Assembly (NCBI GenBank): GCA_951406725.2 | Contig: OX597833.1 | Span: 23,312,001 to 23,376,000 of the forward strand | DNA from: Octopus vulgaris | Lineage: Eukaryota | Reading direction: 5' to 3' | DNA length: 64,000 bases | Shown: positions 16,890 to 58,088 of the stretch, in pieces | Numbering within the stretch: position 1 is the first letter of the stretch | Layout of the letters: the number at the start of each line of letters is the position of its first letter | Notes under the pieces: model-generated | What the model was told of the DNA's origin: nothing | Seen by the model: only the letters and a program-made list of their open reading frames with translations | Database searches by the model: none | Translations under genes and position numbers: made by a program

Positions 16890-18467
16890 CATTTGTGATA
16901 GCAAGGGGAAACTTTCTGGGTTGGAAATTTGTGGTTGCATGGCGCTTACCTCCCCTAGTCCGTAAAGAATTTATTTTACGTACAGGGTTGCTGGCACTAT
17001 TAGAATTGAAATCATTATTCCTATTACGAGTAACTTTACTATCTGCAGAAGCAGATGCTGGTTTAGAATGAGCTGAGTCGAGCATGACACTTTCTCCCCA
17101 TAACCGGCTCCCAACAAGGCGGCGTCACAGAAGTCCGCCCCTTGGCCAAAGATGCCGACACCAGCAGACAACCTGGACAGTCTCAGAGACACGTTTTCAA
17201 CTAAACCATCGGCAACTGGTCTGGCATGACCACTGAAAATGCCAACACACCCAAGACGTGCGGAAGGTCCACGACAAGGGAAGCATGAGTCACTCTGCAA
17301 ACCGAGGGCAATGTCCAAGAAGTTGGCCCTAGCCAATTCATCGTTGAAAACCAATGCGCAAGCCCACTCCACTAAAAAACCCAACCAATCTGTTCTTAAC
17401 CTTCTGTATTTTTTGGTTCGAAACGTTTTGGAGGTAAAGCAGACAATCGTCGCGATAAAGACCTCCACAGATGTCCGGGAATTGGTCGGCCATTTCACAA
17501 AGAATATAAATTCCGACCAAACCGGCTATCTGGGCGCTGTCTGTACTTCCCATTAGTACATCAAACGCATTAGGGGCATCTCTACCGAACCACAATTTGC
17601 TATCGAACTGGATGAAAGACTTCCTAGCAGTCAATATCACACCAATTTCCCCCCTGGAGAGGCCTGCCCCACTGTGCGCGTGCCATAGGGCCTTATTAAG
17701 TACAACAGGGTTGATTGAAGAATAGAAACCAGATACACCGAATTGGACAAATTTAGTGTTGGCCCCATCAGTAATAGAAGTAAACCAATCTACGACTTGA
17801 ACAGAATTGGACCATAAGCTAAGTTTTAATTTATTAATTAATATAGGGATATACTTATCTAATATGTATTTACTAAGGATACCGATGTCTGAACTGGAAG
17901 GGCATATGAGCCGCAATGCTGGGCCAGTATGAAAGTTCTGTTTGTGGTCCTTTAAGATGAATCTGGGTTGCCTAGGGTTTAATGGTTCCGTCTTCATCTT
18001 TAATCCGTAAGTCTCCATAATCTGCTTAGTTTCTAAGTTGGCCCGCCTGAGAGCACTCCCACCGGTGGTCCTGTAATTCTTATGTATCTCCTTTTCGAGC
18101 AGTTCTAAATAATGGCTCTTGGTAAGCCTAAAGATGTTGCCGGTTTCATCCGACCGGACAAGGACAGAATCCAAGCCGTCCATATCCCCAGAGACGTCAT
18201 CGAGGCACCTGACGTGCTCATTCCTGAGGGGTGATTTATGAAATTTAATATTATTTACGATGTCCCAAAGATCATCTTCGAATTTCTTCAATCTAGGATT
18301 AGGTGGAGAAGTTCCCCTCGACTTAAATAGTCTTTTACACCCAAGGGAGACGTCGTTACTGGTCCGTTTTAGGTCCTCATTATCGTGGAAGAAGGCGAGC
18401 CATCTGATGCGGATGATAAATGCATTGGTCTTGTTAATAATTTCCTTAAGGAAGGCTTTTTTCGGTG
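16890..18467 (-). pseudogene. PLE partial copy (RT region), head-to-head with copy A
   Basis: Reverse complement of 18808-20382. Confidence 0.92.
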
Positions 18468-18761
18468 AATGAAAACATGCTGTCTTCGAAACATGAGTCG
18501 AGAGTAAAGGAATTTTGTTAACATCTTCGTTCGACTCCATTCTTTCATTTATTCATATACAACACACAGATTTCTACACATGAACCCGGAGTTTCTACCC
18601 TTGACAGGTCGCTTCAACCGTGTTTCTGACGTGAATTTGCTACCCAGGTTTCGGTTAAACGAATTTTCCATGCTGACGATAAACATAGGATAATTCATTC
18701 ACCTACTTAAATATTCTTATACAGTTTCCCTGAGAACCTGCTAACATAACCGATACCGCAA

Positions 18762-21327
18762 ATGGAGTTGTTCAATATTAACGCCTCCCTTAAGGATATC
18801 CCTATACCACCGAAAAAGCCTTCCTTAAGGAAATTATTAACAAGACCAATGCATTTATCATCCGCATCAGATGGCTCGCCTTCTTCCACGATAATGAGGA
18901 CCTAAAACGGACCAGTAACGACGTCTCCCTTGGGTGTAAAAGACTATTTAAGTCGAGGGGAACTCCTCCACCTAATCCTAGATTGAAGAAATTCGAAGAT
19001 GATCTTTAGGACATCGTAAAGAATATTAAATTTCATAAATCACCCCTCAGGAATGAGCACCTCAGGTGCCTCGATGACGTCTCTGGGGATATGGACGGCT
19101 TGGATTCTGTCCTGGTCCGGTCGGATGAAACCGGCAACATCTATAAGCTTACCAAGAGCCATTATTTAGAACTGCTCGAAAAGGAGATACATAAGAATTA
19201 CAGGACCACCGGTGGGAGTGCCCTCAAGCGGGCCAACTTAGAAACTAAGCAGATTATGGAGACTTACGGATTACAGATGAAGACGGAACCATTAAACCTA
19301 GGCAACCCAGATTCATCTTAAAGGACCACAAACAGAACTTTCATACTGGCCCAGCATTGCGGCTCATATGCCCTTCCAGATCAGACATCGGTACCCTTAG
19401 TAAATACATATTAGATAAGTACATCCCTATATTAATTAATAAATTAAAACTTAGCTTATGGTCCAATTCTGTTCAAGTCGTAGATTGGTTTACTTCTATT
19501 ACTGATGGGGCCAACACTAAATTTGTCCAATTCGGTGTATCTGGTTTCTATTCTTCAATCAACCCTGTTGTACTTAATAAGGCCCTATGGCACGCGCACA
19601 GTGGGGCAGGCCTCTCCAGGGGGAAATTGGTGTGATATTGACTGCTAGGAAATCTTTCATCCAGTTCGATAGCAAATTGTGGTTCGGTAGAGATGCCCCT
19701 AATGCGTTTATGTATTAATGGGAAGTACAGACAGCGCCCAGATAGCCGGTTTGGTCGGAATTTATATTCTTTGTGAAATGGCCGACCAATTCCCGGACAT
19801 CTGTGGAGGTCTTTATCGCGACGATTGTCTGCTTTACCTCCAAAACGTTTTGAACCAAAAAATACAGAAGGTTAAGAACAGATTGGTTGGGTTTTTTAGT
19901 GGAGTGGGCTTGCGCATTGGTTTTTGACGATGAATTGGCTAGGGCCAACTTCTTGGACATTGCCCTCGGTTTGCAGAGTGACTCATGCTTCCCTTGTCGT
20001 GGACCTTCCGCACGTCTTGGGTGTGTTGGCATTTTCAGTGGTCATGCCAGACCAGTTGCCGATGGTTTAGTTGAAAACGTGTCTCTGAGACTGTCCAGGT
20101 TGTCTGCTGGTGTCGGCATCTTTGGCTAAGGGGCGGACTTCTGTGGCGCCGCCTTGTTGGGAGCCGGTTATGGGGAGAAAGTGTCATGCGTCGACTCAGC
20201 TCATTCTAAACCAGCATCTGCTTCTCCAAATAGTAAAGTTACTCGTAATAGGAATAATGATTTCAATTCTAATAGTGCCAGCAACCCTGTACGTAAAATA
20301 AATTCTTTACGGACTAGGGGAGGTAAGCGCCATGCAACCACAAATTTCCAACCCAGAAATTTTCTCCTTGCTATCACAAATGACACTGGGAACAATTCAA
20401 GGGCCACAGAAAACTGTATCTGGTTTGTAATACCTTTCGGAAAACAAATTAAATCGAACCTTCCCTTACAGTTCCGTGAAGCCGTTGCTGGGAGCTTTCC
20501 CAGAAATTCTGGATGTCATTCTGTTGTCGATTCACACGGGGTCAGAGTCGCTTTCTCTGGCACTAGGGGTCTTTCGCAAATTGTGTCTTCCCAATACCAA
20601 ACTGCTAGACGGGAATTCTTCACCCGGCAGTTCCAACACTAATCTTGCTAATTCCAACCCATCATACAATCATGGTGATAGGAGTAGTGTTGATGGTGAC
20701 AGTATTGGTGGCGCTGAAAGTGTTGACAATGATGGTGTTGATAATGGTATTGGTCGTGTTGATAGTGGCGGCAGTGGCGGTGTTGTTGTCGGGGGTATTG
20801 CTGGTTGTAATGCCGTTGGTAATACTAATGGTGGTGGAGGTGGTGTAGTTGTTGGCGCTAATGGTAATGGTGACAACGGTCATGACGGTAGAGGCTTCGT
20901 TTCGATCTCGGAGGACAGGCCCAGCAGAATTGGATTTTTGTCTGGTGGTTCTGGGATTTGGAATTCTGTTTGCCAGTGTGGAGTTTCTTCCGGTGCCGGT
21001 GTCTTCTTCTGTGTGGGAGCGTCCACTTCCCAGTTGTCCAGGAGAGTTTCAGACCACTGCTCAACATTCAGGGATAGTAAGGGGCGACATAGTGCAGGGC
21101 TAAGTGAATTGGTTTGGCGTCTTAAGGACAACAATATAGTTTTCAAGTTGGATTGGTTCATACTGTATGTGTCCTTTCCTTTTGATGTGGGCGGGAGATT
21201 TTGTAACATTTGTGACTCTGAATTCTTCCGTGTTCTTTTCTCTAGGGTTCCCCTGGTGGACACACTGATAGAGGGATCATACAGCTGTAAACACTGGCAG
21301 AGGCACACTTTCTGCTCATATAAATGA
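18762..21327 (+). pseudogene. PLE copy A: RT + GIY-YIG ORF (~850 codons), frameshifted and hypermutated
   Basis: MELFNIN start; PRFILKDHK, LRLICP, FGVSGFYSSI, YRDD, FLDIAL, VC..CVG, CNIC..CKH, TGA at 21325. Confidence 0.9.
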
Positions 21328-21592
21328 TAACGATAGTCACTGTGGTTTGAACAATTGGCTTTACGTCCACCCCACTTCTATAAAAATTCTTTCCTAAGCC
21401 TTCGAACATTCTTTCAATCAACGTGCCCTTCCCTCTCCACTTGTTCCCTGCCTGTTATTGCTTTTTCCCTTCTCTTCCTACTATCTATTTTTGACGTCAA
21501 TTCTTCTAATGTTTTTTTAAAAAAAACACTCATTATCGCTTTGTTTGCCGTGTGGGCAATCATCAAAATTTTTGTTTGTCTTGTCGAGAGAG

Positions 21593-21690
21593 TTCCCTTT
21601 CTTTCCTGGTGAGAAGATTGCATGGTGCACCCTTTATTCCTTTGGAATGAAAACATGCTGTCTTCGAAACATGAGTCGAGAGTAAAGGAA
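21593..21690 (+). ncRNA. Type I hammerhead ribozyme of the PLE pLTR with variant core CUGGUGA
   Basis: Stem I CTTTC/GAGAG extended by TTCCCTTT/AAAGGAA; core CTGGTGA 21606-21612; stem II GAAGA..TCTTC; GAAAC-ATGA-GTC. Same motif with core at 25341, 28497, 32209, 35363, 38511 (+) and at 24452-24549, 31319-31416, 42825-42922 (-). Confidence 0.85.
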
Positions 21691-21939
21691 TTTTGTTAAC
21701 ATCTTCGTTCGACTCCATTCTTTCATTTATTCATATACAACACACAGATTTCTACACATGAACCCGGAGTTTCTACCCTTGACAGGTCGCTTCAACCGTG
21801 TTTCTGACGTGAATTTGCTACCCAGGTTTCGGTTAAACGAATTTTCCATGCTGACGATAAACATAGGATAATTCATTCACCTACTTAAATATTCTTATAC
21901 AGTTTCCCTGAGAACCTGCTAACATAACCGATACCGCAA

Positions 21940-24900
21940 ATGGAGTTGTTCAATATTAACGCCTCCCTTAAGGATATCCCTATACCACCGAAAAAAGCCT
22001 TCCTTAAGGAAATTATTAACAAGACCAATGCATTTATCATCCGCATCAGATGGCTCGCCTTCTTCCACGATAATGAGGACCTAAAACGGACCAGTAACGA
22101 CGTCTCCCTTGGGTGTAAAAGACTATTTAAGTCGAGGGAACTCCTCCACCTAATCCTAGATTGAAGAAATTCGAAGATGATCTTTGGGACATCGTAAAGA
22201 ATATTAAATTTCATAAATCACCCCTCAGGAATGAGCACGTCAGGTGCCTCGATGACGTCTCTGGGGATATGGACGGCTTGGATTCTGTCCTGGTCCGGTC
22301 GGATGAAACCGGCAACATCTATAAGATTACCAAGAGCCATTATTTAGAACTGCTCGAAAAGGAGATACATAAGAATTACAGGACCACCGGTGGGAGTGCT
22401 CTCAGGCGGGCCAACTTAGAAACTAAGCAGATTATGGAGACTTACGGATTACAGATGAAGACGGAACCATTAAACCCTAGGCAACCCAGATTCATCTTAA
22501 AGGACCACAAACAGAACTTTCATACTGGCCCAGCATTGCGGCTCATATGCCCTTCCAGTTCAGACATCGGTACCCTTAGTAAATACATATTAGATAAGTA
22601 TATCCCTATATTAATTAATAAATTAAAACTTAGCTTATGGTCCAATTCTGTTCAAGTCGTAGATTGGTTTACTTCTATTACTGATGGGGCCAACACTAAA
22701 TTTGTCCAATTCGGTGTATCTGGTTTCTATTCTTCAATCAACCCTGTTGTACTTAATAAGGCCCTATGGCACGCGCACAGTGGGCAGGCCTCTCCAGGGG
22801 GAAATCGGTGTGATATTGACTGCTAAGAAGTCTTTCATCCAGTTCGATAGCATTGTGGTTCGGTAGAGATGCCCCTAATGCGTTTGATGTACTAATGGGA
22901 AGTACAGACAGCGCCCAGATAGCCGGTTTGGTCGGAATTTATATTCTTTGTGAAATGGCCGACCAATTCCCGGACATCTGTGGAGGTCTTTATCGCGACG
23001 ATTGTCTGCTTTACCTCCAAAACGTTTCGAACCAAAAAATACAGAAGGTTAAGAACAGATTGGTTGGGTTTTTTAGTGGAGTGGGCTTGCGCATTGGTTT
23101 TTGACGATGAATTGGCTAGGGCCAACTTCTTGGACATTGCCCTCGGTTTGCAGAGTGACTCATGCTTCCCTTGTCGTGGACCTTCCGCAGATCTTGGGTG
23201 TGTTGGCATTTTCAGTGGTCATGCCAGACCAGTTGCCGATGGTTTAGTTGAAAACGTGTCTCTGAGACTGTCCAGGTTGTCTGCTGGTGTCGGCATCTTT
23301 GGCCAAGGGGCGGACTTCTGTGGCGCCGCCTTGTTGGGAGCCGGTTATGGGGAGAAAGTGTCATGCGTCGACTCAGCTCATTCTAAACCAGCATCTGCTT
23401 CTCCAAATAGTAAAGTTACTCGTAATAGGAATAATGATTTCAATTCTAATAGTGCCAGCAACCCTGTACGTAAAATAAATTCTTTACGGACTAGGGGAGG
23501 TAAGCGCCATGCAACCACAAATTTCCAACCCAGAAATTTTCCCCTTGCTATCACAAATGACACTGGGAACAATTCAAGGGCCACAGAAAACTGTATCTGG
23601 TTTGTAATACCTTTCAGAAAACAAATTAAATCGAACCTTCCCTTACAGTTCCGTGAAGCCGTTGCTGGGAGCTTTCCCAGAAATTCTGGATGTCATTCTG
23701 TTGTCGATTCACACGGGGTCAGAGTCGCTTTCTCTGGCACTAGGGGTCTTTCGCAAATTGTGTCTTCCCAATACCAAACTGCTAGACGGGAATTCTTCAC
23801 CCGGCAGTTCCAACACTAATCTTGCTAATTCCAACCCATCATACAATCATGGTGATAGGAGTAGTGTTGATGGTGACAGTATTGGTGGCGGCGAAAGTGT
23901 TGACGATGATGGTGTTGATAATGGTATTGGTCGTGTTGATAGTGGCGGCAGTGGCGGTGTTGTTGTCGGTGGTATTGCTGGTTGTAATGCCGTTGGTAAT
24001 ACTAATGGTGGTGGAGGTGGTGTAGTTGTTGGCGCTAATGGTAATGGAGACAACGGTCATGACGGTAGAGGCTTCGTTTCGATCTCGGAGAACAGCCCCA
24101 GCAGAATTGGATTTTTGTCTGGTGGTTCTGGGATTGGGAATTCTGTTTGCCAGTGTGGAGTTTCTTCCGGTGCCGGTGTCTTCTCCTGTGTGGGAGCGTC
24201 CACTTCCCAGTTGTCCAGGAGAGTTTCAGACCACTGCTCAACATTCAGGGATAGTAAGGGGCGACATAGTGCAGGGCTAAGTGAATTGGTTTGGCGTCTT
24301 AAGGACAACAATATAGTTTTCAAGTTGGATTGGTTCATACTGTCTGTGTCCTTTCCTTTTGTGGTATAGAAACTCCGGGTTCATGTGTAGAAATCTGTGT
24401 GTTGTATATGAATAATTGAAAGAATGGAGTCGATCGAAGATGTTAACAATATTCCTTTACTCTCGACTCATGTTTCGAAGACAGCATGTTTTCATTCCAA
24501 AGGAATAAAGGGTGCACCATGCAATCTTCTCACCAGGAAAGAAAGGGAACCTCTCTCGACAACAAGACAAACAAAATTTTGATGATTGCCCACACGGCAA
24601 ACAAAGCGATAATAAGTGTTTTTTTTAAAAAACATTGGAAGAATTGACGTCAAAAATAGATAGTAGGAAGAGAAGGGACAAAGCAATAACAGGCAGGGAA
24701 CAAGTGGGAAGGGAAGGGCACGTTGATTGAAAGAATGTTCGAAGGCTTATGAAAGAATTTCTTTATAGAAGTGGGGTGGGCGTAAAGCCAATTGTTCAAA
24801 CCACAGGATAGTAAGGGGCGACATAGTGCAGGGCTAAGTGAATTGGTTTGGCGTCTTAAGGACAACAATATAGTTTTCAAGTTGGATTGGTTCATACTCT

Positions 24901-25059
24901 CTGTGTCCTTTCCTTTTGATGGGGGCGGGAGATTTTGTAACATTGGTGACTCTGAATTCTTCCGTGTTCTTTTCTCTAGGGTTCCCCTGGTGGACACCGA
25001 TAGAGGGATCATACAGCTGTAAACACTGGCAGAGGCACACTTTCTGCTAATATAAATGA
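21940..25059 (+). pseudogene. PLE copy B, with inverted pLTR segment 24367-24806 inside the endonuclease region
   Basis: Repeat of copy A at ~3177 bp offset; ~110 bp of EN sequence is duplicated across the inversion. Confidence 0.9.
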
Positions 25060-25674
25060 TAACGATAGTCACTGTGGTTTGAACAATTGGCTTTACGCCC
25101 ACCCCACTTCTATAAAGTAATTCTTTCATAAGCCTTCGAACATTCTTTCAATCAACGTGCCCTTCCCTCTCCACTTGTTCCCTGCCTGTTATTGCTTTTT
25201 CCCTTCTCTTCCTACTATCTATTTTTGACGTCAATTCTTCTAATGTTTTTTTTAAAAAAACACTCATTATCGCTTTGTTTGCCGTGTGGGCAATCATCAA
25301 AATTTTTGTTTGTCTTGTCGAGAGAGTTTCCCTTTCTTTCCTGGTGAGAAGATTGCATGGTGCACCCTTTATTCCTTTGGAATGAAAACATGCTGTCTTC
25401 GAAACATGAGTCGAGAGTAAAGGAATTTTGTTAACATCTTCGTTCGACTCCATTCTTTCATTTATTTATATACAACACACAGATTTCTACACATGAACCC
25501 GGAGTTTCTACCCTTGACAGGTCGCTTCAACCGTGTTTCTGACGTGAATTTGCTACCCAGGTTTCGGTTAAACGAATTTTCCATGCTGACGATAAACATA
25601 GGATAATTCATTCACCTACTTAAATATTCTTATACAGTTTCCCTGAGAACCTGCTAACATAACCGATACCGCAA

Positions 25675-28215
25675 ATGGAGTTGTTCAATGTTAACGCCTC
25701 CCTTAAGGATATCCCTATACCACCGAAAAAAGCCTTCCTTAAGGAAATTATTAACAAGACCAATGCATTTATCATCCGCATCAGATGGCTCGCCTTCTTC
25801 CACGATAATGAGGACCTAAAACGGACCAGTAACGACGTCTCCCTTGGGTGTAAAAGACTATTTAAGTCGAGGTGAACTCCTCCACCTAATCCTAGATTGA
25901 AGAAATTCGAAGATGATCTTTGGGACATCGTAAAGAATATTAAATTTCAAAAATCACCCCTCAGGAATGAGCACGTCAGGTGCCTCGATGACGTCTCTGG
26001 GGATATGGACGGCTTGGATTCTGTCGTGGTCCGGTCGGATGAAACCGGCAACATCTATAGGCTTACCAAGAGCCATTATTTAGAACTGCTCGAAAAGGAG
26101 ATACATAAGAATTACAGGACCACCGGTGGGAGTGCCCTCAGGCGGGCCAACTTAGAAACTAAGCAGAGTATGGAGACTTACGGATTACAGATGAAGACGG
26201 AACCATTAAACCCTAGGCAATCCAGATTCATCTTAAAGGACCACAAACAGAACTTTCATACTGGCCCAGCATTGCGGCTCATATGCCCTTCCAGTTCAGA
26301 CATCGGTACCCTTAGTAAATACATATTAGATAAGTATATCCCTGTATTAATTAATAAATTAAAACTTAGCTTATGGTCCAATTCTGTTCAAGTCGTAGAT
26401 TGGGTTACTTCTATTACTGATGGGGCCAACACTAATTCGGTGTATCTGGTTTCTATTCTTCAATCAACCCTGTTGTACTTAATAAGGCCCTATGGCACGC
26501 GCACAGTGGGGCAGGCCTCTCCAGGGGGGAAATCGGTGTGATATTGACTGCTAGGAAGTTTTTCATCCAGTTCGGTAGAGATGCCCCTAATGCGTTTGAT
26601 GTACTAATGGGAAGTACAGACAGCGCCCAGATAGCCGGTTTGGTCGGAATTTATATTCTTTGTGAAATGGCCGACCAATTCCCGGACATCTGTGGAGGTC
26701 TTTATCGCGACGATTGTCTGCTTTACCTCCAAAACGTTTCGAACCAAAAAATACAGAAGGTTAAGAACAGATTGGTTGGGTTTTTTTAGTGGAGTGGGCT
26801 TGCGCATTGGTTTTTGACGATGAATTGGCTAGGGCCAACTTCTTGGACATTGCCCTCGGTTTGCAGAGTGACTCATGCTTCCCTTGTCGTGGACCTTCCG
26901 CAGATCTTGGGTGTGTTGGCATTTTCAGTGGTCATGCCAGACCAGTTGCCGATGGTTTAGTTGAAAACGTGTCTCTGAGACTGTCCAGGTTGTCTGCTGG
27001 TGTCGGCATCTTTGGCCAAGGGGCGGACTTCTGTGGCGCCGCCTTGTTGGGAGCCGGTTATGGGGAGAAAGTGTCATGCGTCGACTCAGCTCATTCTAAA
27101 CCAGCATCTGCTTCTCCAAATAGTAAAGTTACTCGTAATAGGAATAATGATTTCAATTCTAATAGTGCCAGCAACCCTGTACGTAAAATAAATTCTTTAC
27201 GGACTAGGGGAGGTAAGCGCCATGCAACCACAAATTTCCAACCCAGAAATTTTCCCCTTGCTATCACAAATGACACTGGGAACAATTCAAGGGCCACAGA
27301 AAACTGTATCTGGTTTGTAATACCTTTCAGAAAACAAATTAAATCGAACCTTCCCTTACAGTTCCGTGAAGCCGTTGCTGGGAGCTTTCCCAGAAATTCT
27401 GGATGTCATTCTGTTGTCGATTCACACGGGGTCAGAGTCGCTTTCTCTGGCACTAGGGGTCTTTCGCAAATTGTGTCTTCCCAATACCAAACTGCTAGAC
27501 GGGAATTCTTCACCCGGCAGTTCCAACACTAATCTTGCTAATTCCAACCCATCATACAATCATGGTGATAGGAGTAGTGTTGATGGTGACAGTATTGGTG
27601 GCGGCGAAAGTGTTGACGATGATGGTGTTGATAATGGTATTGGTCGTGTTGATAGTGGCGGCAGTGGCGGTGTTGTTGTCGGTGGTATTGCTGGTTGTAA
27701 TGCCGTTGGTAATACTAATGGTGGTGGAGGTGGTGTAGTTGTTGGCGCTAATGGTAATGGTGACAACGGTCATGACGGTAGAGGCTTCGTTTCGATCTCG
27801 GAGGACAGGCCCAGCAGAATTGGATTTTTGTCTGGTGGTTCTGGGTTTGGAAATTCTGTTTGCCAGTGTGGAGTTTCTTCCGGTGCCGGTGTCTTCTTCT
27901 GTGGGGGCGTCCACTTCCCAGTTGTCCAGGAGAGTTTCAGACCACTGCTCAACATTCAGGGATAGTAAGGGGCGACATAGTGCAGGGCTAAGTGAATTGG
28001 TTTGGCGTCTTAAGGACAACAATATAGTTTTCAAGTTGGATTGGTTCATACTGTCTGTGTCCTTTCCTTTTGATGGGGGCGGGAGATTTTGTAACATTTG
28101 TGACTCTGAATTCTTCCGTGTTCTTTTCTCTAGGGTTCCCCTGGTGGACACACTGATAGAGGGATCATACAGCTGTAAACACTGGCAGAGGCACACTTTC
28201 TGCTCATATAAATGA
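25675..28215 (+). pseudogene. PLE copy C
   Basis: Same sequence with small deletions near 26433 and 26572. Confidence 0.9.
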
Positions 28216-28831
28216 TAACGATAGTCACTGTGGTTTGAACAATTGGCTTTACGCCCACCCCACTTCTATAAAGTAATTCTTTCATAAGCCTTCGAACATT
28301 CTTTCAATCAACGTGCCCTTCCCTCTCCACTTGTTCCCTGCCTGTTATTGCTTTTTCCCTTCTCTTCCTACTATCTATTTTTGACGTCAATTCTTCTAAT
28401 GTTTTTTTAAAAAAAACACTCATTATCGCTTTGTTTGCCGTGTGGGCAATCATCAAAATTTTTGTTTGTCTTGTCGAGAGAGTTTCCCTTTCTTTCCTGG
28501 TGAGAAGATTGCATGGTGCACCCTTTATTCCTTTGGAATGAAAACATGCTGTCTTCGAAACATGAGTCGAGAGTAAAGGAATTTTGTTAACATCTTCGTT
28601 CGACTCCATTCTTTCATTTATTTATATACAACACACAGATTTCTACACATGAACCCGGAGTTTCTACCCTTGACAGGTCGCTTCAACCGTGTTTCTGACG
28701 TGAATTTGCTACCCAGGTTTCGGTTTTAACGAATTTTGCATGCTGACGATAAACATAGGATAATTCATTCACCTACTTAAATATTCTTATACAGTTTCCC
28801 TGAGAACCTGCTAACATAACCGATACCGCAA

Positions 28832-31800
28832 ATGGAGTTGTTCAATGTTAACGCCTCCCTTAAGGATATCCCTATACCACCGAAAAAAGCCTTCCTTAAG
28901 GAAATTATTAACAAGACCAATGCATTTATCATCCGCATCAGATGGCTCGCCTTCTTCCACGATAATGAGGACCTAAAACGGACCAGTAACGACGTCTCCC
29001 TTGGGTGTAAAAGACTATTTAAGTCGAGGTGAACTCCTCCACCTAATCCTAGATTGAAGAAATTCGAAGATGATCTTTGGGACATCGTAAAGAATATTAA
29101 ATTTCATAAATCACCCCTCAGGAATGAGCACGTCAGGTGCCTCGATGACGTCTCTGGGGATATGGACGGCTTGGATTCTGTCGTGGTCCGGTCGGATGAA
29201 ACCGGCAACATCTATAAGTTTACCAAGAGCCATTATTTAGAACTGCTCGAAAAGGAGATACATAAGAATTACAGGACCACCGGTGGGAGTGCCCTCAGGC
29301 GGGCCAACTTAGAAACTAAGCAGAGTATGGAGACTTACGGATTACAGATGAAGACGGAACCATTAAACCCTAGGCAACCCAGATTCATCTTAAAGGACCA
29401 CAAACAGAACTTTCATACTGGCCCAGCATTGCGGCTCATATGCCCTTCCAGTTCAGACATCGGTACCCTTAGTAAATACATATTAGATAAGTATATCCCT
29501 ATATTAATTAATAAATTAAAACTTAGCTTATGGTCCAATTCTGTTCAAGTCGTAGATTGGTTTACTTCTATTACTGATGGGGCCAACACTAATTCGGTGT
29601 ATCTGGTTTCTATTCTTCAATCAACCCTGTTGTACTTAATAAGGCCCTATGGCACGCGCACAGTGGGGCAGGCCTCTCCAGGGGAAATCGGTGTGATATT
29701 GACTGCTAAGAAGTTTTTCATCCAGTTCGGTAGAGATGCCCCTAATGCGTTTGATGTACTAATGGGAAGTACAGACAGCGCCCAGAAAGCCGGTTTGGTC
29801 GGAATTTATATTCTTTGTGAAATGGCCGACCAATTCCCGGACATCTGTGGAGGTCTTTATCGCGACGATTGTCTGCTTTACCTCCAAAACGTTTCGAACC
29901 AAAAAATACAGAAGGTTAAGAACAGATTGGTTGGGTTTTTTAGTGGAGTGGGCTTGCGCATTGGTTTTTGACGATGAATTGGCTAGGGCCAACTTCTTGG
30001 ACATTGCCCTCGGTTTGCAGAGTGACTCATGCTTCCCTTGTCGTGGACCTTCCGCAGATCTTGGGTGTGTTGGCATTTTCAGTGGTCATGCCAGACCAGT
30101 TGCCGATGGTTTAGTTGAAAACGTGTCTCTGAGACTGTCCAGGTTGTCTGCTGGTGTCGGCATCTTTGGCCAAGGGGCGGACTTCTGTGGCGCCGCCTTG
30201 TTGGGAGCCGGTTATGGGGAGAAAGTGTCATGCGTCGACTCAGCTCATTCTAAACCAGCATCTGCTTCTCCAAATAGTAAAGTTACTCGTAATAGGAATA
30301 ATGATTTCAATTCTAATAGTGCCAGCAACCCTGTACGTAAAATAAATTCTTTACGGACTAGGGGAGGTAAGCGCCATGCAACCACAAATTTCCAACCCAG
30401 AAATTTTCCCCTTGCTATCACAAATGACACTGGGAACAATTCAAGGGCCACAGAAAACTGTATCTGGTTTGTAATACCTTTCAGAAAACAAATTAAATCG
30501 AACCTTCCCTTACAGTTCCGTGAAGCCGTTGCTGGGAGCTTTCCCAGAAATTCTGGATGTCATTCTGTTGTCGATTCACACGGGGTCAGAGTCGCTTTCT
30601 CTGGCACTAGGGGTCTTTCGCAAATTGTGTCTTCCCAATACCAAACTGCTAGACGGGAATTCTTCACCCGGCAGTTCCAACACTAATCTTGCTAATTCCA
30701 ACCCATCATACAATCATGGTGATAGGAGTAGTGTTGATGGTGACAGTATTGGTGGCGGCGAAAGTGTTGACGATGATGGTGTTGATAATGGTATTGGTCG
30801 TGTTGATAGTGGCGGCAGTGGCGGTGTTGTTGTCGGTGGTATTGCTGGTTGTAATGCCGTTGGTAATACTAATGGTGGTGGAGGTGGTGTAGTTGTTGGC
30901 GCTAATGGTAATGGAGACAACGGTCATGACGGTAGAGGCTTCGTTTCGATCTCGGAGAACAGCCCCAGCAGAATTGGATTTTTGTCTGGTGGTTCTGGGA
31001 TTGGGAATTCTGTTTGCCAGTGTGGAGTTTCTTCCGGTGCCGGTGTCTTCTTCTGTGTGGGGGCGTCCACTTCCCAGTTGTCCAGGAGAGTTTCAGACCA
31101 CTGCTCAACATTCAGGGATAGTAAGGGGCGACATAGTGCAGGGCTAAGTGAATTGGTTTGGCGTCTTAAGGACAACAATATAGTTTTCAAGTTGGATTGG
31201 TTCATACTGTCTGTGTCCTTTCCTTTTGTGGTATAGAAACTCCGGGTTCATGTGTAGAAATCTGTGTGTTGTATATGAATAATTGAAAGAATGGAGTCGA
31301 TCGAAGATGTTAACAATATTCCTTTACTCTCGACTCATGTTTCGAAGACAGCATGTTTTCATTCCAAAGGAATAAAGGGTGCACCATGCAATCTTCTCAC
31401 CAGGAAAGAAAGGGAACCTCTCTCGACAACAAGACAAACAAAATTTTGATGATTGCCCACACGGCAAACAAAGCGATAATAAGTGTTTTTTTTAAAAAAA
31501 CATTGGAAGAATTGACGTCAAAAATAGATAGTAGGAAGAGAAGGGACAAAGCAATAACAGGCAGGGAACAAGTGGGAAGGGAAGGGCACGTTGATTGAAA
31601 GAATGTTCGAAGGCTTATGAAAGAATTTCTTTATAGAAGTGGGGTGGGCGTAAAGCCAATTGTTCAAACCACAGGATAGTAAGGGGCGACATAGTGCAGG
31701 GCTAAGTGAATTGGTTTGGCGTCTTAAGGACAACAATATAGTTTTCAAGTTGGATTGGTTCATACTCTCTGTGTCCTTTCCTTTTGATGGGGGCGGGAGA

Positions 31801-31927
31801 TTTTGTAACATTGGTGACTCTGAATTCTTCCGTGTTCTTTTCTCTAGGGTTCCCCTGGTGGACACCGATAGAGGGATCATACAGCTGTAAACACTGGCAG
31901 AGGCACACTTTCTGCTAATATAAATGA
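28832..31927 (+). pseudogene. PLE copy D, with inverted pLTR segment 31234-31674
   Basis: 3' part duplicates copy B at 6867-6868 bp offset. Confidence 0.9.
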
Positions 31928-32542
31928 TAACGATAGTCACTGTGGTTTGAACAATTGGCTTTACGCCCACCCCACTTCTATAAAGTAATTCTTTCATAAG
32001 CCTTCGAACATTCTTTCAATCAACGTGCCCTTCCCTCTCCACTTGTTCCCTGCCTGTTATTGCTTTTTCCCTTCTCTTCCTACTATCTATTTTTGACGTC
32101 AATTCTTCTAATGTTTTTTTTAAAAAAACACTCATTATCGCTTTGTTTGCCGTGTGGGCAATCATCAAAATTTTTGTTTGTCTTGTCGAGAGAGTTTCCC
32201 TTTCTTTCCTGGTGAGAAGATTGCATGGTGCACCCTTTATTCCTTTGGAATGAAAACATGCTGTCTTCGAAACATGAGTCGAGAGTAAAGGAATTTTGTT
32301 AACATCTTCGTTCGACTCCATTCTTTCATTTATTTATATACAACACACAGATTTCTACACATGAACCCGGAGTTTCTACCCTTGACAGGTCGCTTCAACC
32401 GTGTTTCTGACGTGAATTTGCTACCCAGGTTTCGGTTAAACGAATTTTCCATGCTGACGATAAACATAGGATAATTCATTCACCTACTTAAATATTCTTA
32501 TACAGTTTCCCTGAGAACCTGCTAACATAACCGATACCGCAA

Positions 32543-35081
32543 ATGGAGTTGTTCAATGTTAACGCCTCCCTTAAGGATATCCCTATACCACCGAAAAAAG
32601 CCTTCCTTAAGGAAATTATTAACAAGACCAATGCATTTATCATCCGCATCAGATGGCTCGCCTTCTTCCACGATAATGAGGACCTAAAACGGACCAGTAA
32701 CGACGTCTCCCTTGGGTGTAAAAGACTATTTAAGTCGAGGTGAACTCCTCCACCTAATCCTAGATTGAAGAAATTCGAAGATGATCTTTGGGACATCGTA
32801 AAGAATATTAAATTTCAAAAATCACCCCTCAGGAATGAGCACGTCAGGTGCCTCGATGACGTCTCTGGGGATATGGACGGCTTGGATTCTGTCGTGGTCC
32901 GGTCGGATGAAACCGGCAACATCTATAGGCTTACCAAGAGCCATTATTTAGAACTGCTCGAAAAGGAGATACATAAGAATTACAGGACCACCGGTGGGAG
33001 TGCCCTCAGGCGGGCCAACTTAGAAACTAAGCAGAGTATGGAGACTTACGGATTACAGATGAAGACGGAACCATTAAACCCTAGGCAATCCAGATTCATC
33101 TTAAAGGACCACAAACAGAACTTTCATACTGGCCCAGCATTGCGGCTCATATGCCCTTCCAGTTCAGACATCGGTACCCTTAGTAAATACATATTAGATA
33201 AGTATATCCCTGTATTAATTAATAAATTAAAACTTAGCTTATGGTCCAATTCTGTTCAAGTCGTAGATTGGGTTACTTCTATTACTGATGGGGCCAACAC
33301 TAATTCGGTGTATCTGGTTTCTATTCTTCAATCAACCCTGTTGTACTTAATAAGGCCCTATGGCACGCGCACAGTGGGGCAGGCCTCTCCAGGGGGAAAT
33401 CGGTGTGATATTGACTGCTAGGAAGTTTTTCATCCAGTTCGGTAGAGATGCCCCTAATGCGTTTGATGTACTAATGGGAAGTACAGACAGCGCCCAGATA
33501 GCCGGTTTGGTCGGAATTTATATTCTTTGTGAAATGGCCGACCAATTCCCGGACATCTGTGGAGGTCTTTATCGCGACGATTGTCTGCTTTACCTCCAAA
33601 ACGTTTCGAACCAAAAAATACAGAAGGTTAAGAACAGATTGGTTGGGTTTTTTAGTGGAGTGGGCTTGCGCATTGGTTTTTGACGATGAATTGGCTAGGG
33701 CCAACTTCTTGGACATTGCCCTCGGTTTGCAGAGTGACTCATGCTTCCCTTGTCGTGGACCTTCCGCAGATCTTGGGTGTGTTGGCATTTTCAGTGGTCA
33801 TGCCAGACCAGTTGCCGATGGTTTAGTTGAAAACGTGTCTCTGAGACTGTCCAGGTTGTCTGCTGGTGTCGGCATCTTTGGCCAAGGGGCGGACTTCTGT
33901 GGCGCCGCCTTGTTGGGAGCCGGTTATGGGGAGAAAGTGTCATGCGTCGACTCAGCTCATTCTAAACCAGCATCTGCTTCTCCAAATAGTAAAGTTACTC
34001 GTAATAGGAATAATGATTTCAATTCTAATAGTGCCAGCAACCCTGTACGTAAAATAAATTCTTTACGGACTAGGGGAGGTAAGCGCCATGCAACCACAAA
34101 TTTCCAACCCAGAAATTTTCCCCTTGCTATCACAAATGACACTGGGAACAATTCAAGGGCCACAGAAAACTGTATCTGGTTTGTAATACCTTTCAGAAAA
34201 CAAATTAAATCGAACCTTCCCTTACAGTTCCGTGAAGCCGTTGCTGGGAGCTTTCCCAGAAATTCTGGATGTCATTCTGTTGTCGATTCACACGGGGTCA
34301 GAGTCGCTTTCTCTGGCACTAGGGGTCTTTCGCAAATTGTGTCTTCCCAATACCAAACTGCTAGACGGGAATTCTTCACCCGGCAGTTCCAACACTAATC
34401 TTGCTAATTCCAACCCATCATACAATCATGGTGATAGGAGTAGTGTTGATGGTGACAGTATTGGTGGCGGCGAAAGTGTTGACGATGATGGTGTTGATAA
34501 TGGTATTGGTCGTGTTGATAGTGGCGGCAGTGGCGGTGTTGTTGTCGGTGGTATTGCTGGTTGTAATGCCGTTGGTAATACTAATGGTGGTGGAGGTGGT
34601 GTAGTTGTTGGCGCTAATGGTAATGGTGACAACGGTCATGACGGTAGAGGCTTCGTTTCGATCTCGGAGGACAGGCCCAGCAGAATTGGATTTTTGTCTG
34701 GTGGTTCTGGGTTTGGAAATTCTGTTTGCCAGTGTGGAGTTTCTTCCGGTGCCGGTGTCTTCTTCTGTGGGGGCGTCCACTTCCCAGTTGTCCAGGAGAG
34801 TTTCAGACCACTGCTCAACATTCAGGGATAGTAAGGGGCGACATAGTGCAGGGCTAAGTGAATTGGTTTGGCGTCTTAAGGACAACAATATAGTTTTCAA
34901 GTTGGATTGGTTCATACTGTCTGTGTCCTTTCCTTTTGATGGGGGCGGGAGATTTTGTAACATTTGTGACTCTGAATTCTTCCGTGTTCTTTTCTCTAGG
35001 GTTCCCCTGGTGGACACACTGATAGAGGGATCATACAGCTGTAAACACTGGCAGAGGCACACTTTCTGCTCATATAAATGA
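32543..35081 (+). pseudogene. PLE copy E
   Basis: Nearly identical to copy C at 6866-6868 bp offset. Confidence 0.9.
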
Positions 35082-35697
35082 TAACGATAGTCACTGTGGT
35101 TTGAACAATTGGCTTTACGCCCACCCCACTTCTATAAAGTAATTCTTTCATAAGCCTTCGAACATTCTTTCAATCAACGTGCCCTTCCCTCTCCACTTGT
35201 TCCCTGCCTGTTATTGCTTTTTCCCTTCTCTTCCTACTATCTATTTTTGACGTCAATTCTTCTAATGTTTTTTTAAAAAAAACACTCATTATCGCTTTGT
35301 TTGCCGTGTGGGCAATCATCAAAATTTTTGTTTGTCTTGTCGAGAGAGTTTCCCTTTCTTTCCTGGTGAGAAGATTGCATGGTGCACCCTTTATTCCTTT
35401 GGAATGAAAACATGCTGTCTTCGAAACATGAGTCGAGAGTAAAGGAATTTTGTTAACATCTTCGTTCGACTCCATTCTTTCATTTATTTATATACAACAC
35501 ACAGATTTCTACACATGAACCCGGAGTTTCTACCCTTGACAGGTCGCTTCAACCGTGTTTCTGACGTGAATTTGCTACCCAGGTTTCGGTTTTAACGAAT
35601 TTTGCATGCTGACGATAAACATAGGATAATTCATTCACCTACTTAAATATTCTTATACAGTTTCCCTGAGAACCTGCTAACATAACCGATACCGCAA

Positions 35698-38227
35698 ATG
35701 GAGTTGTTCAATGTTAACGCCTCCCTTAAGGATATCCCTATACCACCGAAAAAAGCCTTCCTTAAGGAAATTATTAACAAGACCAATGCATTTATCATCC
35801 GCATCAGATGGCTCGCCTTCTTCCACGATAATGAGGACCTAAAACGGACCAGTAACGACGTCTCCCTTGGGTGTAAAAGACTATTTAAGTCGAGGTGAAC
35901 TCCTCCACCTAATCCTAGATTGAAGAAATTCGAAGATGATCTTTGGGACATCGTAAAGAATATTAAATTTCATAAATCACCCCTCAGGAATGAGCACGTC
36001 AGGTGCCTCGATGACGTCTCTGGGGATATGGACGGCTTGGATTCTGTCGTGGTCCGGTCGGATGAAACCGGCAACATCTATAAGTTTACCAAGAGCCATT
36101 ATTTAGAACTGCTCGAAAAGGAGATACATAAGAATTACAGGACCACCGGTGGGAGTGCCCTCAGGCGGGCCAACTTAGAAACTAAGCAGAGTATGGAGAC
36201 TTACGGATTACAGATGAAGACGGAACCATTAAACCCTAGGCAACCCAGATTCATCTTAAAGGACCACAAACAGAACTTTCATACTGGCCCAGCATTGCGG
36301 CTCATATGCCCTTCCAGTTCAGACATCGGTACCCTTAGTAAATACATATTAGATAAGTATATCCCTATATTAATTAATAAATTAAAACTTAGCTTATGGT
36401 CCAATTCTGTTCAAGTCGTAGATTGGTTTACTTCTATTACTGATGGGGCCAACACTAATTCGGTGTATCTGGTTTCTATTCTTCAATCAACCCTGTTGTA
36501 CTTAATAAGGCCCTATGGCACGCGCACAGTGGGGCAGGCCTCTCCAGGGGGGAAATCGGTGTGATATTGACTGCTAAGAAGTTTTTCATCCAGTTCGGTA
36601 GAGATGCCCCTAATGCGTTTGATGTACTAATGGGAAGTACAGACAGCGCCCAGATAGCCGGTTTGGTCGGAATTTATATTCTTTGTGAAATGGCCGACCA
36701 ATTCCCGGACATCTGTGGAGGTCTTTATCGCGACGATTGTCTGCTTTACCTCCAAAACGTTTCGAACCAAAAAATACAGAAGGTTAAGAACAGATTGGTT
36801 GGGTTTTTTAGTGGAGTGGGCTTGCGCATTGGTTTTTGACGATGAATTGGCTAGGGCCAACTTCTTGGACATTGCCCTCGGTTTGCAGAGTGACTCATGC
36901 TTCCCTTGTCGTGGACCTTCCGCAGATCTTGGGTGTGTTGGCATTTTCAGTGGTCATGCCAGACCAGTTGCCGATGGTTTAGTTGAAAACGTGTCTCTGA
37001 GACTGTCCAGGTTGTCTGCTGGTGTCGGCATCTTTGGCCAAGGGGCGGACTTCTGTGGCGCCGCCTTGTTGGGAGCCGGTTATGGGAGAAAGTGTCATGC
37101 GTCGACTCAGCTCATTCTAAACCAGCATCTGCTTCTCCAAATAGTAAAGTTACTCGTAATAGGAATAATGATTTCAATTCTAATAGTGCCAGCAACCCTG
37201 AACGTAAAATGAATTCTTTACGGACTAGGGGAGGTAAGCGCCATGCAACCACAAATTTCCAACCCAGAAATTTTCCCCTTGCTATCACAAATGACACTGG
37301 GAACAATTCAAGGGCCACAGAAAACTGTATCTGGTTTGTAATACCTTTCAGAAAACAAATTAAATCGAACCTTCCCTTACAGTTCCGTGAAGTCGTTGCT
37401 GGGAGCTTTCCCAGAAATTCTGGATGTCATTCTGTTGTCGATTCACACGGGGTCAGAGTCGCTTTCTCTGGCACTAGGGGTCTTTCGCAAATTGTGTCTT
37501 CCCAATACCAAACTGCTAGACGGGAAATCTTCACCCGGCAGTTCCAACACTAATCTTGCTAATTCCAACCAATCATACAATCATGGTGATAGGAGTAGTG
37601 TTGATGGTGACAGTATTGGTGGCGGCGAAAGTGTTGACGATGATGGTGTTGATAATGGTATTGGTCGTGTTGATAGTGGCGGTGTTGTTGTCGGTCGTAT
37701 TGCTGGTTGTAATGCCGTTGGTAATACTAATGGTGGTGGAGGTGGTGTAGTTGTTGGCGCTAATGGTAATGGTGACAACGGTCATGACGGTAGAGGCTTC
37801 GTTTAGATCTCGGAGGACAGCCCCAGCAGAATTGGATTTTTGTCTGGTGGTTCTGGGCTTGGAAATTCTGTTTGCCAGTGTGGAGTTTCTTCCGGTGCCG
37901 GTGTCTTCTTCTGTGGGGGCGTCCACTTCCCAGTTGTCCAGGAGAGTTTCAGACCACTGCTCAACATTCAGGGATAGTAAGGGGCGACATAGTGCAGGGC
38001 TAAGTGAATTGGTTTGGCGTCTTAAGGACAACAATATAGTTTTCAAGTTGGATTGGTTCATACTGTCTGTGTCCTTTCCTTTTGATGGGGGCGGGAGATT
38101 TTGTAACATTTGTGATTCTGAATTCTTCCGTGTTCTTTTCTCTAGGGTTCCCCTGGTGGACACACTGATAGAGGGATCATACAGCTGTAAACACTGGCAG
38201 AGGCACACTTTCTGCTCATATAAATGA
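35698..38227 (+). pseudogene. PLE copy F
   Basis: Same ORF remnants; followed by pLTR to 38680. Confidence 0.9.
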
Positions 38228-38685
38228 TAACGATAGTCACTGTGGTTTGAACAATTGGCTTTACGCCCACCCCACTTCTATAAAGAAATTCTTTCATAAG
38301 CCTTCGAACATTCTTTCAATCAACGTGCCCTTCCCTCTCCACTTGTTCCCTGCCTGTTATTGCTTTGTCCCTTCTCTTCCTACTATCTATTTTTGACGTC
38401 AATTCTTCTAACGTTTTTTTAAAAAAAACACTTATTATCGCTTTGTTTGCCGTGTGGGCAATCATCAAAATTTTGTTTGTCTTGTTGTCGAGGGAGGTTC
38501 CCTTTCTTTCCTGGTGAGAAGATTGCATGGTGCACCCTTTATTTCTTTGGAATGAAAACATGCTGTCTTCGAAACATGAGTCGAGAGTAAAGGAATTTTG
38601 TTAACATCTTCGTTCGACTCCATTCTTTCATTTATTCATATACAACACACAGATTTCTACACATGAACCCGGAGTTTCTATACCA

Positions 38686-41600
38686 CAAAAGGAAAGGACA
38701 CAGACAGTATGAACCAATCCAACTTGAAAACTATATTGTTGTCCTTAAGACGCCAAACCAATTCACTTAGCCCTGCACTATGTCGCCCCTTACTATCCCT
38801 GAATGTTGAGCAGTGGTCTGAAACTCTCCTGAACAACTGGGAAGTGGACGCTCCCACAGAAGAAGACACCTGCACCGGAAGAAACTCCACACTGGCAAAC
38901 AGAATTCCCAATCCCAGAACCACCAGACAAAAATCCAATTCTGCTGGGGCTGTCCTCCGAGATCGAAACGAAGCCTCTACCGTCATGACCGTTGCCTCCA
39001 TTACCATTAGCGCCAACAACTACACCACCTCCACCACCATTAGTATTACCAACGGCATTACAACGAGCAATACCACCGACAACAACACCGCCACTGCCGT
39101 CACTATCAACACGACCAATACCATTATCAACACCATCATTGTCAACACTTTCGCCACCACCAATGCTGTCACCATCAACACTACTCCTATCACCATGATT
39201 GTATGATGGGTTGGAATTAGCAAGATTAGTGTTGGAACTGCCGGGTGAAGAATTCCCGTCTAGCAGTTTGGTATTGGGAAGACACAAGTTGCGAAAGACC
39301 CCTAGTGCCAGAGAAAGCGACTCTGACCCCGTGTGAATCGACAACAGAATGACATCCAGAATTTCTGGGAAAGCTCCCAGCAACGGCTTCACGGAACTGT
39401 AAGGAAAGGTTCGATTTAATTTGTTTTCCGAAATGTATTACAAACCAGATACAGTTTTCTGTGACCCTTGAAATGTTCCCAGTGTCATTTATGAAAGCAA
39501 GGGGAAAATTTCTGGGTTGGAAATTTGTGGTTGCATGGCGCTTACCTCCCCTAGTCCGTAAAGAATTCATTTTACGTTCAGGGTTGCTGGCACTATTAGA
39601 ATTGAAATCATTATTCCTATTACGAGTAACTTTACTATCTGGAGAAGCAGATGCTGGTTTAGAATGAGCTGAGTCGACGCATGACACTTTCTCCGCATAA
39701 CCGGCTCCCAACAAGGCGGCGCCACAGAAGTCCGCCCCTTGGCCAAAGATGCCGACACCAGCAGACAACCTGGACAGTCTCAGAGACACGGTTTCAACTA
39801 AACCATCGGCAACTGGTCTGGCATGACCACTGAAAATGCCAACACACCCAAGACCTGCGGAAGGTCCATGACAAGGGAAGCATGAGTCACTCTGCAAACC
39901 GAGGGCAATGTCCAAGAAGTTGGCCCTAGCCAATTCATCGTCAAAAACCATGCGCAAGCCCACTCCACTAAAAAACCCAACCAATCTGTTCTTAACCTTC
40001 TGTATATTTTGGTTCGAAACGTTTTGGAGGTAAAGCAGACAATCGTCGCGATAAAGACCTCCACAGATGTCCGGGAATTGGTCGGCCATTTCACAAAGAA
40101 TATAAATTCCGACCAAACCGGCTATCTGGGCGCTGTCTGTACTTCCCATTAGTTGTTGGTTGGCATCCTTTCTGTCTCGGGAGACAATGGAGTTGCGCAT
40201 AAAGTAGTCTAGTCCGGCTTTTATATTTCATGTCCTGATACATTTCCTGCTGTGGCTGTGTAGTCCTATCCTGGACAAACACTTCCTCTGGCAGGTACCG
40301 CAAATGTAGCGAAGACTGTTCCTGTCTGGTTGTAATGCCATAGTCTCTTGTTGACGTCCCTTCTTTTCTTTCCATTTCTCCTCTCTCTCTCTCTCTGTCA
40401 CTCCTTTGTATTCCCTCTTTTACGGTACGTCGCCATTCTTCACGGTTGCCGGCAACTGCCTCCCAACCGCTAATATTGATGTTGCAGGACTTCATGTCCC
40501 TTTTGCAAACATCCTTGTAACGTAAGATCGGTCTACCCACAGACCTAGCACCCCTGGCAAGCTCTCCGTAGCGTATGTCCTTGGGGATTCTGCCATCTTT
40601 CATACGGCTAACATGCCCAAGCCATCTCATACGTCTTTGTGTGAGGAGTGCAAACATGCTTGGTATTCCTGCTTGCCTGAGGACATCTTTGTTGGGGATA
40701 TGATTCTGCCATTTGATGCGGAGGATTTTTCGGAGGCAGCGCAGGTGAAAGATGTTTAGGCGACGCTCTTGGCGTGTGTATAGCGTCCAGGTCTCACTTC
40801 CATACAGTAGAGTGCTGAGTACACATGCCTGGTAGATCTTCATTTTCGTGGTCTTGGTCAGCTTATTGTTGTCCCAAGCCCGTTTGGAGAGTTGGGCCAT
40901 CGCAGCAGCTGCCTTGCCAATGCGTATATTGAGCTCAGCGTCAAGGGATAGGTTGTAGGTGACGGTAGAGCCCAGATAGGTAAACTTCTCCACCTCTTGT
41001 AATCTGTGGTCTCCAATATGTATGTTTGGGATGTCCGATGTAGCCTGGCCCATGATGTTGGTCTTCTTAAGGCTGATAGCTAAGCCAAAGTCGTTACATG
41101 CTTGCTCAAAACAGTTAATGAGCCTTTGGAGGGCTTCTTCTGTGTGTGTTACCAGAGCGGCATCATCAGCAAATAACATCTCCTTGATCAGGACGTTTCT
41201 GATTTTGGTCTTGGCACGCAGGCGCGAGAGATTGAACAGTTTCCCGTCACTTCTACTGTGCAGAAACACTCCAGCTTCTGATGTCTGAAAGGCATGTGAA
41301 AGTAAGAGCGAGAAGAAGATGCCAAACAATGTAGGAGCGAGGACACAACCTTGTTTTACCCCGTTTTTTATTTGGAAGGCGGCTGATGTTGAACCGTTGT
41401 GCTGTATGGTGCCTTGCATGTCATCATGGAAAGACTTGATGATCCTCAGCAGCTTTGGTGGACATCCGATTTTTTTGGAGCAGGATGAAGAGGCCTGTTC
41501 TGCTTACCGAGTCAAAAGCCTTTGTTAGATCAATGAAGGCCATATATAATGGCATTTTCTGCTCTCTGGACTTCTCCTGAAGTTGGCGTATGGAGAATAT

Positions 41601-44407: not shown

Positions 44408-44408
<1 letters not shown>
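43192..44408 (-). pseudogene. PLE copy H (5'-truncated: thumb, linker, EN), abutting (TA)n
   Basis: Minus-strand ORFs 43877-44407 and 43192-44043; (TA)n from 44409. Confidence 0.9.
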
Positions 44409-44458
<50 letters not shown>

Positions 44459-48053: not shown

Positions 48054-48124
48054 ATAAATAAAGATTCTTATACTCCATCTTCCATCTCTTTCATTTATTG
48101 TATATAGATATATATGTGTGTGTG

Positions 48125-58043: not shown

Positions 58044-58088
<45 letters not shown>

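Follow-up and report, generated by a model that had tools for sequence, protein, structure and literature searches.

A tandem and inverted Penelope-like element array in Octopus vulgaris, a probable germline fossil of hyper-edited RNA

A stretch of 64,000 nucleotides from Octopus vulgaris (contig OX597833.1, here referred to as the window and numbered from its first letter) contains nine full copies of a hammerhead ribozyme motif, and in all of them the core reads CUGGUGA, where the consensus calls for CUGANGA. The locus raises the question of whether this change, and others like it in the same element, were made in RNA and then written into DNA. Our main reading, to which we give a probability of roughly 0.85, is that the locus would descend from the RNA of a Penelope-like element (PLE) that was hyper-edited by ADAR, reverse-transcribed, inserted in the germline and multiplied.

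A sequence-only reading had described a complete type I hammerhead at 21593-21690 with a predicted cut after 21677, and its parts were found as described. In the reference copy, stem I is formed by CTTTC (21601-21605) and GAGAG (21678-21682), the core CTGGTGA occupies 21606-21612 with G at core position 6 (21609), and the long stem II (21613-21665) includes an inner ATTCC-TTT-GGAAT hairpin. Then follow GAAAC (21666-21670), loop 3 ATGA (21671-21674) and GTC (21675-21677), so that GAAA, the A15.1-U16.1 pair and the NUH triplet are present at 21666-21677, together with stems I and II and the G10.1-C11.1 pair. Folding of the region gave z = -3.09, and 2 of 200 shuffles were equally good. The 58 Rfam matches in the window at E<=1 do not include the hammerhead model, for which the long stem II is a likely cause. 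With 21593-21690 as a query, we obtained nine full copies in the window, eight identical and one with a single change, which confirmed CUGGUGA in all nine. The CUGANGA core is present in none of these copies and in 1121 copies of the family: a 21-mer with CTGATGA has this number of exact matches across the 2.8-Gb genome, and CUGAUGA is the family norm. The hammerhead family as such has the consensus core, and the window motif is a damaged member of it.

Table 1. Hammerhead copies, array segments and related features of the window.
Feature	Position	Strand	Basis
Type I PLE hammerhead, reference copy	21601..21682	+	motif parts, folding
Core position 6, A>G	21609	+	A in 49/49 aligned segments of relatives
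Two more A>G at stem II end	21624..21625	+	comparison with relatives
T>A in loop 3, non-editing change	21674	+	in 0/49 relative segments
Hammerhead copy 1 (reference)	21593..21690	+	window self-search
Hammerhead copy 2, in inverted segment D	24452..24549	-	window self-search
Hammerhead copy 3	25328..25425	+	window self-search
Hammerhead copy 4	28484..28581	+	window self-search
Hammerhead copy 5, in inverted segment G	31319..31416	-	window self-search
Hammerhead copy 6	32196..32293	+	window self-search
Hammerhead copy 7	35350..35447	+	window self-search
Hammerhead copy 8, one private change	38498..38595	+	window self-search
Hammerhead copy 9	42825..42922	-	window self-search
Partial hammerhead, 3' half without core, at segment B start	18467..18512	+	window self-search
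Whole tandem/inverted array, hyper-edited PLE (most likely by ADAR), period 3180 bp	16890..44409	.	alignment
Segment A, inverted ORF fragment, unit 21986-23559; 98 A>G versus 1 T>C in element sense	16890..18467	-	
Segments B and C, 1.86 seamless head-to-tail units	18467..24364	+	alignment
Dead RT and GIY-YIG ORF remnant in unit C, frameshifted	21940..24364	+	translation comparison
Segment D, inverted pLTR piece, unit 21340-21775, same edits	24367..24806	-	
Segments e, E, F, 2.04 units	24806..31231	+	alignment
Second copy of 6.87-kb block 24365-31231, 99.6% identical	31232..38098	+	alignment
Segment G, 0/434 substitutions versus D	31234..31674	-	
Segments h, H, I, J, 2.2 units, end at unit 21775	31674..38680	+	
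Segments K, L, M, 1.35 inverted units, split by LINE fragment	38683..44409	-	
(TA)n tract at right end, family's usual target	44409..44455	.	
Dispersed SINE-/MITE-like repeat	989-1220, 6340-6609, 8831-9115, 58046-61640, 63493-63736		

The copies belong to an array of about 27 kb, in which we aligned 15 direct and inverted segments (Table 1). A tail-to-tail junction from unit 24364 to unit 21775 occurs at 24365, 31232 and 38682, with one of its three occurrences inverted relative to the other two, and microhomology of 1-3 nt is present at each of the three junction types. The array has a canonical 3' end at neither of its outer limits, so later rearrangement is part of its history. A LINE reverse transcriptase fragment (RVT_1, 40153-41615, minus strand) lies between segments K and L and, as it interrupts the array, should be younger than it. 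Just left of the array is a Helitron remnant (10318-15399, plus strand) with Helitron_like_N, PIF1, Pif1_2B and STPR repeats. The window also holds a 561-aa ORF with RVT_1 (48058-49743, plus strand) and a dispersed SINE- or MITE-like repeat of about 200-250 bp with 74-93% identity. At window positions 22135, 22796 and 23068 an extra base is present in contigs of other runs, so some of the frameshifts in unit C may be private or homopolymer assembly slips.

We aligned 21072-24364 to 43 dispersed loci and kept the columns with at least four rows and 70% agreement. As a result, 276 differences from the majority of these loci were found, namely 246 A>G, 2 T>C and 28 others; since the aligned span repeats 113 bases, we also counted one exact period (segment C, 21185-24364), where 238 of 268 differences are A>G. 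About 240 A>G changes thus fall in each 3.18-kb unit, 24% of the adenosines in the aligned unit are changed, and A>T and A>C together total 4. In the pooled relatives (66 loci, 90,753 bases), the rates are 387/28120 (1.4%) for A>G and 499/29728 (1.7%) for T>C, and the longest A>G run is 4, compared with 34 in the window. An A>G excess was seen in none of these 66 loci, and none of the 68 dispersed loci inspected is hyper-edited. The direction of change is fixed by the relatives, which hold intact motifs: L063 has an open 785-aa frame with DKTG, FDISSFY, YRDD and YIG, and in unit C these read DETG, FGVSGFY and CVG, with YRDD retained. The density is patchy, reaching about 40-60% in 23072-23371 and 23872-24271 and falling to 10% or less around the ribozyme.

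A preference for a 3' G is a feature of ADAR hyper-editing; in the unit, 50 of 170 adenosines with a 3' G are changed, which is not significant (p=0.076). Sorted by the 5' neighbour, the changed adenosines are 118/284 after T, 88/333 after A, 23/212 after C and 9/161 after G, and the depletion after G is marked (9/161 versus 229/829, Fisher p=4e-11). Dense strand-specific A>G with such a 5'-G depletion is the motif reported for ADAR hyper-editing (PMC4365171). Judged from this spectrum, the case for A>G editing of the element is strong, and ADAR most likely made the changes.

Folding revealed no long hairpin inside the unit, so the partner strand was probably an antisense RNA or the inverted arm of a donor; inverted arms are common in the dispersed loci of the family. 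Among the relatives we found neither a donor or antisense partner copy nor a donor with the 14 non-editing changes that all segments have in common. Among the sequencing runs on record, none of RNA contains the edited stretch; matching pieces occur in run X10, whose RNA nature is a guess, and are no evidence of transcription. We then probed the genome for other hyper-edited copies. The probe at unit 24115 matched only four copies, all in the window, and the probe at unit 21547 matched nine copies in the window and two outside loci, neither hyper-edited; each probe depends on one chosen edit, which a hyper-edited copy could escape. Judged from these two probes and the 68 loci, hyper-edited copies are rare in the Octopus vulgaris genome.

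Across the segments, 249 edited sites were compared; at 234 of them no segment keeps the A, and the 15 variable ones resemble the outcome of later mutation or conversion. In the inverted segments the edits follow the element's own (sense) polarity, and all ten pLTR copies, including the terminal ones, have one edit pattern. The template was accordingly limited to a single unit-length stretch, and the nine ribozymes represent one event in one edited RNA and are not independent. All segments descend from one edited stretch of unit length. The segments are 0-3% apart. Seven of the 14 common non-editing changes occur in no aligned relative, while private changes number 6-15 in each of segments A, B, D, K, L and M (1-3% apart), so many against so short a shared stem that these segments seem to have separated early. 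Two pairs of segments are identical in substitutions (E/H 0/3147, D/G 0/434). Unit F is a hybrid whose left part is I and whose right part is C, which shows that the 6.87-kb block was duplicated later at the DNA level by unequal crossover.

The protein of the family is that of a Penelope-like element with a C-terminal endonuclease, as a reverse transcriptase (RT) and a GIY-YIG part lie in a single ORF. The RT motifs DKT, LKDHK, FIQFDI, GLYRDD and NFLD of L063 are common to four homologs; RVT_1 of Pfam matched only below the cut-off (E 0.0074), and the whole protein had no match. The endonuclease residues (IYQC..YIG, R..NH, C..C, E, N, C.H) were aligned by eye with those of homologs, whereas the Pfam GIY-YIG model gave no match on the family protein and the PLE RT model none above the cut-off. 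Further PLE traits are present, namely the tandem/inverted pLTR structure, the hammerhead in the pLTR and the tail. The best named homolog is from Argonauta hians. Homologs P0002-P0004 have a cysteine linker between RT and endonuclease, a mark of the Neptune clade of PLEs, where the family has a long Asn-rich stretch (L063:3155-5512 and L062:5043-6089); the family nonetheless inserts into (TA)n.

The 3' ends of the relatives cluster at unit 21737 (n=26), an AC-rich stretch, and at unit 21892 (n=31), which is 60 and 215 nt beyond the cut site; (TA)n adjoins 54 of the 57 ends. We regard the two points as candidate internal RT start sites. They are 155 nt apart, more than the 30-40 bp tail of other PLEs. 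Poseidon PAc of Anolis (PMC11167929; Frangieh 2024) likewise has two internal RT starts downstream of the cut; there, reverse transcription starts internally on uncleaved RNA, hammerhead mutants insert normally in vitro, and, as in our family, the targets are AT-rich. Insertion there is from uncleaved RNA, as the 3' ends suggest for the family too. Differences from PAc are the spacing of the end points and the ORF of the family, which starts well downstream of the ribozyme; unlike Poseidon, the family protein resembles PLEs with the cysteine linker.

The hammerheads of the relatives were gathered as 53 distinct motifs, by a pattern that demands the core letters and so cannot test them. A15.1-U16.1 is A-T in 53/53, letters that the pattern also demands, and G10.1-C11.1 is G-C in 50/53. 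Core position 7 varies and stem pairing is retained, with variation that keeps the pairs in stem I (U-G/U-A) and stem II (G-C/G-U); double compensatory changes are few because the copies are closely related. Loop 3 is ATAT in 33/53 and ATGT in 18/53, both self-pairing. A divergent hammerhead with a CUGAAGA core, another stem II and the same GAAAC-ATGT-GTC occurs at L009:211-294 and L014:2949-3032. The minimal type I hammerheads of metazoan PLEs (PMC4209133; Cervera and de la Pena 2014) also lie in the pLTR and, as in our family, have a long helix II, a short helix I, G10.1-C11.1 and a palindromic loop 3. They are described as likely dimer-dependent, and the family fits this dimer type. Compared with them, helix II of the family is longer (11 positions plus the inner hairpin), an extra base between positions 9 and 10.1 is absent, and in the window copies position 6 is G and the palindrome is disrupted.

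Several changes bear on whether the window ribozyme can cleave. The T>A at 21674 destroys the self-complementarity of the helix III strand, whose predicted homodimer is -3.4 kcal/mol with ATGA and -6.0 and -7.0 kcal/mol in relatives, and the predicted gap between the active and the best fold grows from about 2 to 5.5 kcal/mol. The A>G at 21624 converts an A-C mismatch, found in most relatives, into a G-C pair, to which the outermost stem II pair CATG/CATG owes its existence. Hammerheads with A6C are slow in magnesium (PMC3088659, PMC7151607); a literature search of partial coverage returned no kinetics for A6G or A6-inosine, and in the template RNA an edited position 6 would have been inosine rather than G. 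By analogy, impaired self-cleavage is plausible, and the ribozyme was probably crippled by G6 together with the loop 3 change.

We further focused on position 6 across the genome. The comparison with unedited relatives that the sequence-only reading had proposed came out in two ways. The relatives carry A in all 49 aligned segments, drawn from 38 dispersed loci; the G6 form nevertheless has 39 matches genome-wide, 9 in the window and 30 elsewhere, or 30 of the 1151 copies outside the window (2.6%). None of the 25 fetched (L067-L091) is hyper-edited, so G6 could predate the editing. These copies are spread over several haplotypes of two subfamilies, which excludes a single G6 sublineage, and in the older subfamily 5 of the first 100 copies listed have it. 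Four other adenosines of the motif, A9 included, give 25 variants together (0.55%), about one fifth of the A6>G rate (p ~1e-8, assuming independent sites). A6>G is also about three times the T>C rate (77 variants at seven thymines); T7>C occurs in 8 copies and A6>C or T in 8. That any core-killing edit is enriched can be rejected, given the few variants at those four adenosines and the absence of G at A13, A14 or A15.1 among the first 100 listed of 782 matches. G6 is found in both arms of two of the seven two-arm loci (L067/L068 and L081/L082), pointing to a G6 that is sometimes template-borne, and in one arm of the other five. Position A6 is thus a recurrent hot spot, by site-selective editing, RT error or DNA mutation.

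It has then to be asked whether the changes are indeed edits of RNA. DNA hypermutation (for example TpA-directed) or an error-prone RT could be put forward in place of ADAR, as TA is the most changed context and we know of no measurement of PLE RT fidelity. Mutation of double-stranded DNA should yield equal numbers of T>C and A>G, where the counts are 2-3 and about 240, and the inverted segments keep the polarity of the element and not that of the chromosome. The near absence of A>T and A>C does not resemble DGR-type A>N, and the 68 dispersed loci, served by the same RT family, are free of such changes; we consider this explanation improbable. An assembly or sequencing artefact might be suspected from homopolymer indels that vary between copies and from the identical E/H and D/G pairs, and assembly could be the source of the 6.87-kb duplication, though of that only. 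For the edits this is refuted, as at least half of the words sampled from the edited stretch are present in 11 of the 24 listed runs, and edited-form contigs (285-476 nt, 2-6 differences) span zones of heavy editing in runs that bear the labels of three other organisms, B, C and D (4 of the 24 runs compared; the labels may be synonyms). An artefact is very unlikely.

Granted hyper-editing of the array, two further points are less one-sided. G6 might not be part of it, coming instead from the donor or from a hot spot at position 6 (RT misincorporation or DNA mutation). Its presence outside the window on several haplotypes of both subfamilies, including the older one, and in one arm only of most two-arm loci speaks for this, as does its context, since A6 follows a G, the least edited context, within a lightly edited zone, and is the only edited GA site among 34 in 21372-22071. 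Against it, GA sites (5.6%) and GAT sites (5/46) of the unit are edited above the 2.6% family background, and two neighbouring adenosines of the same ribozyme are changed too. An origin of G6 outside the editing is therefore possible, yet the weaker choice, and on these rates we would favour derivation of the window G6 from the hyper-editing event at about two to one. As the non-coding support for editing for which it had first been proposed, G6 alone is weak evidence; the element-wide pattern is strong. The other point is how the tandem units arose. Recombination between short terminal repeats of a single edited insertion, or rolling-circle copying of a DNA circle, would make them purely at the DNA level, in line with the one proven duplication, the junction present in both orientations, the non-canonical outer ends and the 14 common changes of which relatives lack seven. 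The private changes of A, B, D, K, L and M relative to that 14-site stem do not fit well with such an origin. Nor does the single pattern of ten pLTRs, since the two pLTRs of a linear RNA should differ, and inverted arms are typical of fresh insertions in the family. We put the purely DNA-level origin slightly short of an even chance. Between repeated reverse transcription of one circular or re-used RNA and DNA-level events the seamless multimers leave the balance about even, and the one pLTR pattern and the early separation of segments would favour the former.

The history that we propose is as follows. A transcript of a (TA)n-targeting PLE would have been double-stranded over most of its length, its partner probably an antisense or inverted copy, and roughly one adenosine in four would have been deaminated by ADAR. 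The edited RNA may then have been reverse-transcribed, with inosine read as G, by an intact PLE protein that either came in trans or had been translated before the editing took place, and the product would have been inserted in the germline. At or soon after insertion the edited stretch would have multiplied into seamless tandem and inverted copies, and later the 6.87-kb block was duplicated by unequal crossover. The CUGGUGA core is most likely one of the edits and, with the loop 3 change, probably left a crippled ribozyme. Insertion in spite of a core mutation fits reverse transcription that begins downstream of the cut, on RNA left uncleaved, and the array offers one case of insertion in vivo bearing on the need for hammerhead cleavage. 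A more speculative extension, which we hold to be rather unlikely, is that the PLE RT circled one unit-length, probably circular RNA several times, and that A6 is a recurrent ribozyme off-switch operated by ADAR. If so, the 234 shared edits would be a single-molecule barcode for the building of tandem/inverted arrays in vivo. Editing at A6 would enrich uncleaved RNA, the form needed for reverse transcription, among new insertions, which would account for the roughly fivefold excess of A6>G over A>G at nearby adenosines across the family.

Precedents exist for parts of this history. In avian retroviral sequences (Felder 1994; Hajjar and Linial 1995; cited in PMC12925331), ADAR-type A>G clusters were likewise carried into DNA by reverse transcription; those are retroviruses changed in the LTR or an inverted-repeat region, whereas here a 3.2-kb unit of a non-viral PLE is edited, fixed in the germline and found across organism labels. 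APOBEC footprints in LTR retroelements (PMC4866542; Knisbacher and Levanon 2016) are also fossilised strand-specific deaminase clusters in genomic copies, polarised by the family consensus, with the opposite change, G>A, on cDNA; as reported there, the survey was of LTR elements, retained alignments dominated by G>A and gave none above noise in 19 invertebrates. The hyper-edited RNA clusters of Porath 2014 (PMC4365171) consist of dense A>G runs that avoid a 5' G and lie in repeats, as here, in RNA reads and not in genomic DNA. Our full-text literature search, of partial coverage, returned no ADAR-edited copies in PLEs or invertebrate germlines.

Octopods are a group with very high RNA editing. 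Judged from its sequence, the array appears to be a real germline fossil of hyper-edited retroelement RNA and would be an ADAR counterpart of the APOBEC footprints. It may serve as a test case for the formation of PLE tandem arrays and bears on questions raised for PLEs (PMC8557442, PMC11167929), namely by what route tandem/inverted arrays arise and whether the hammerhead has to cleave. In this octopus, RNA editing would have been written back into an animal germline via a retroelement, an RNA-level defence leaving a heritable scar in DNA.
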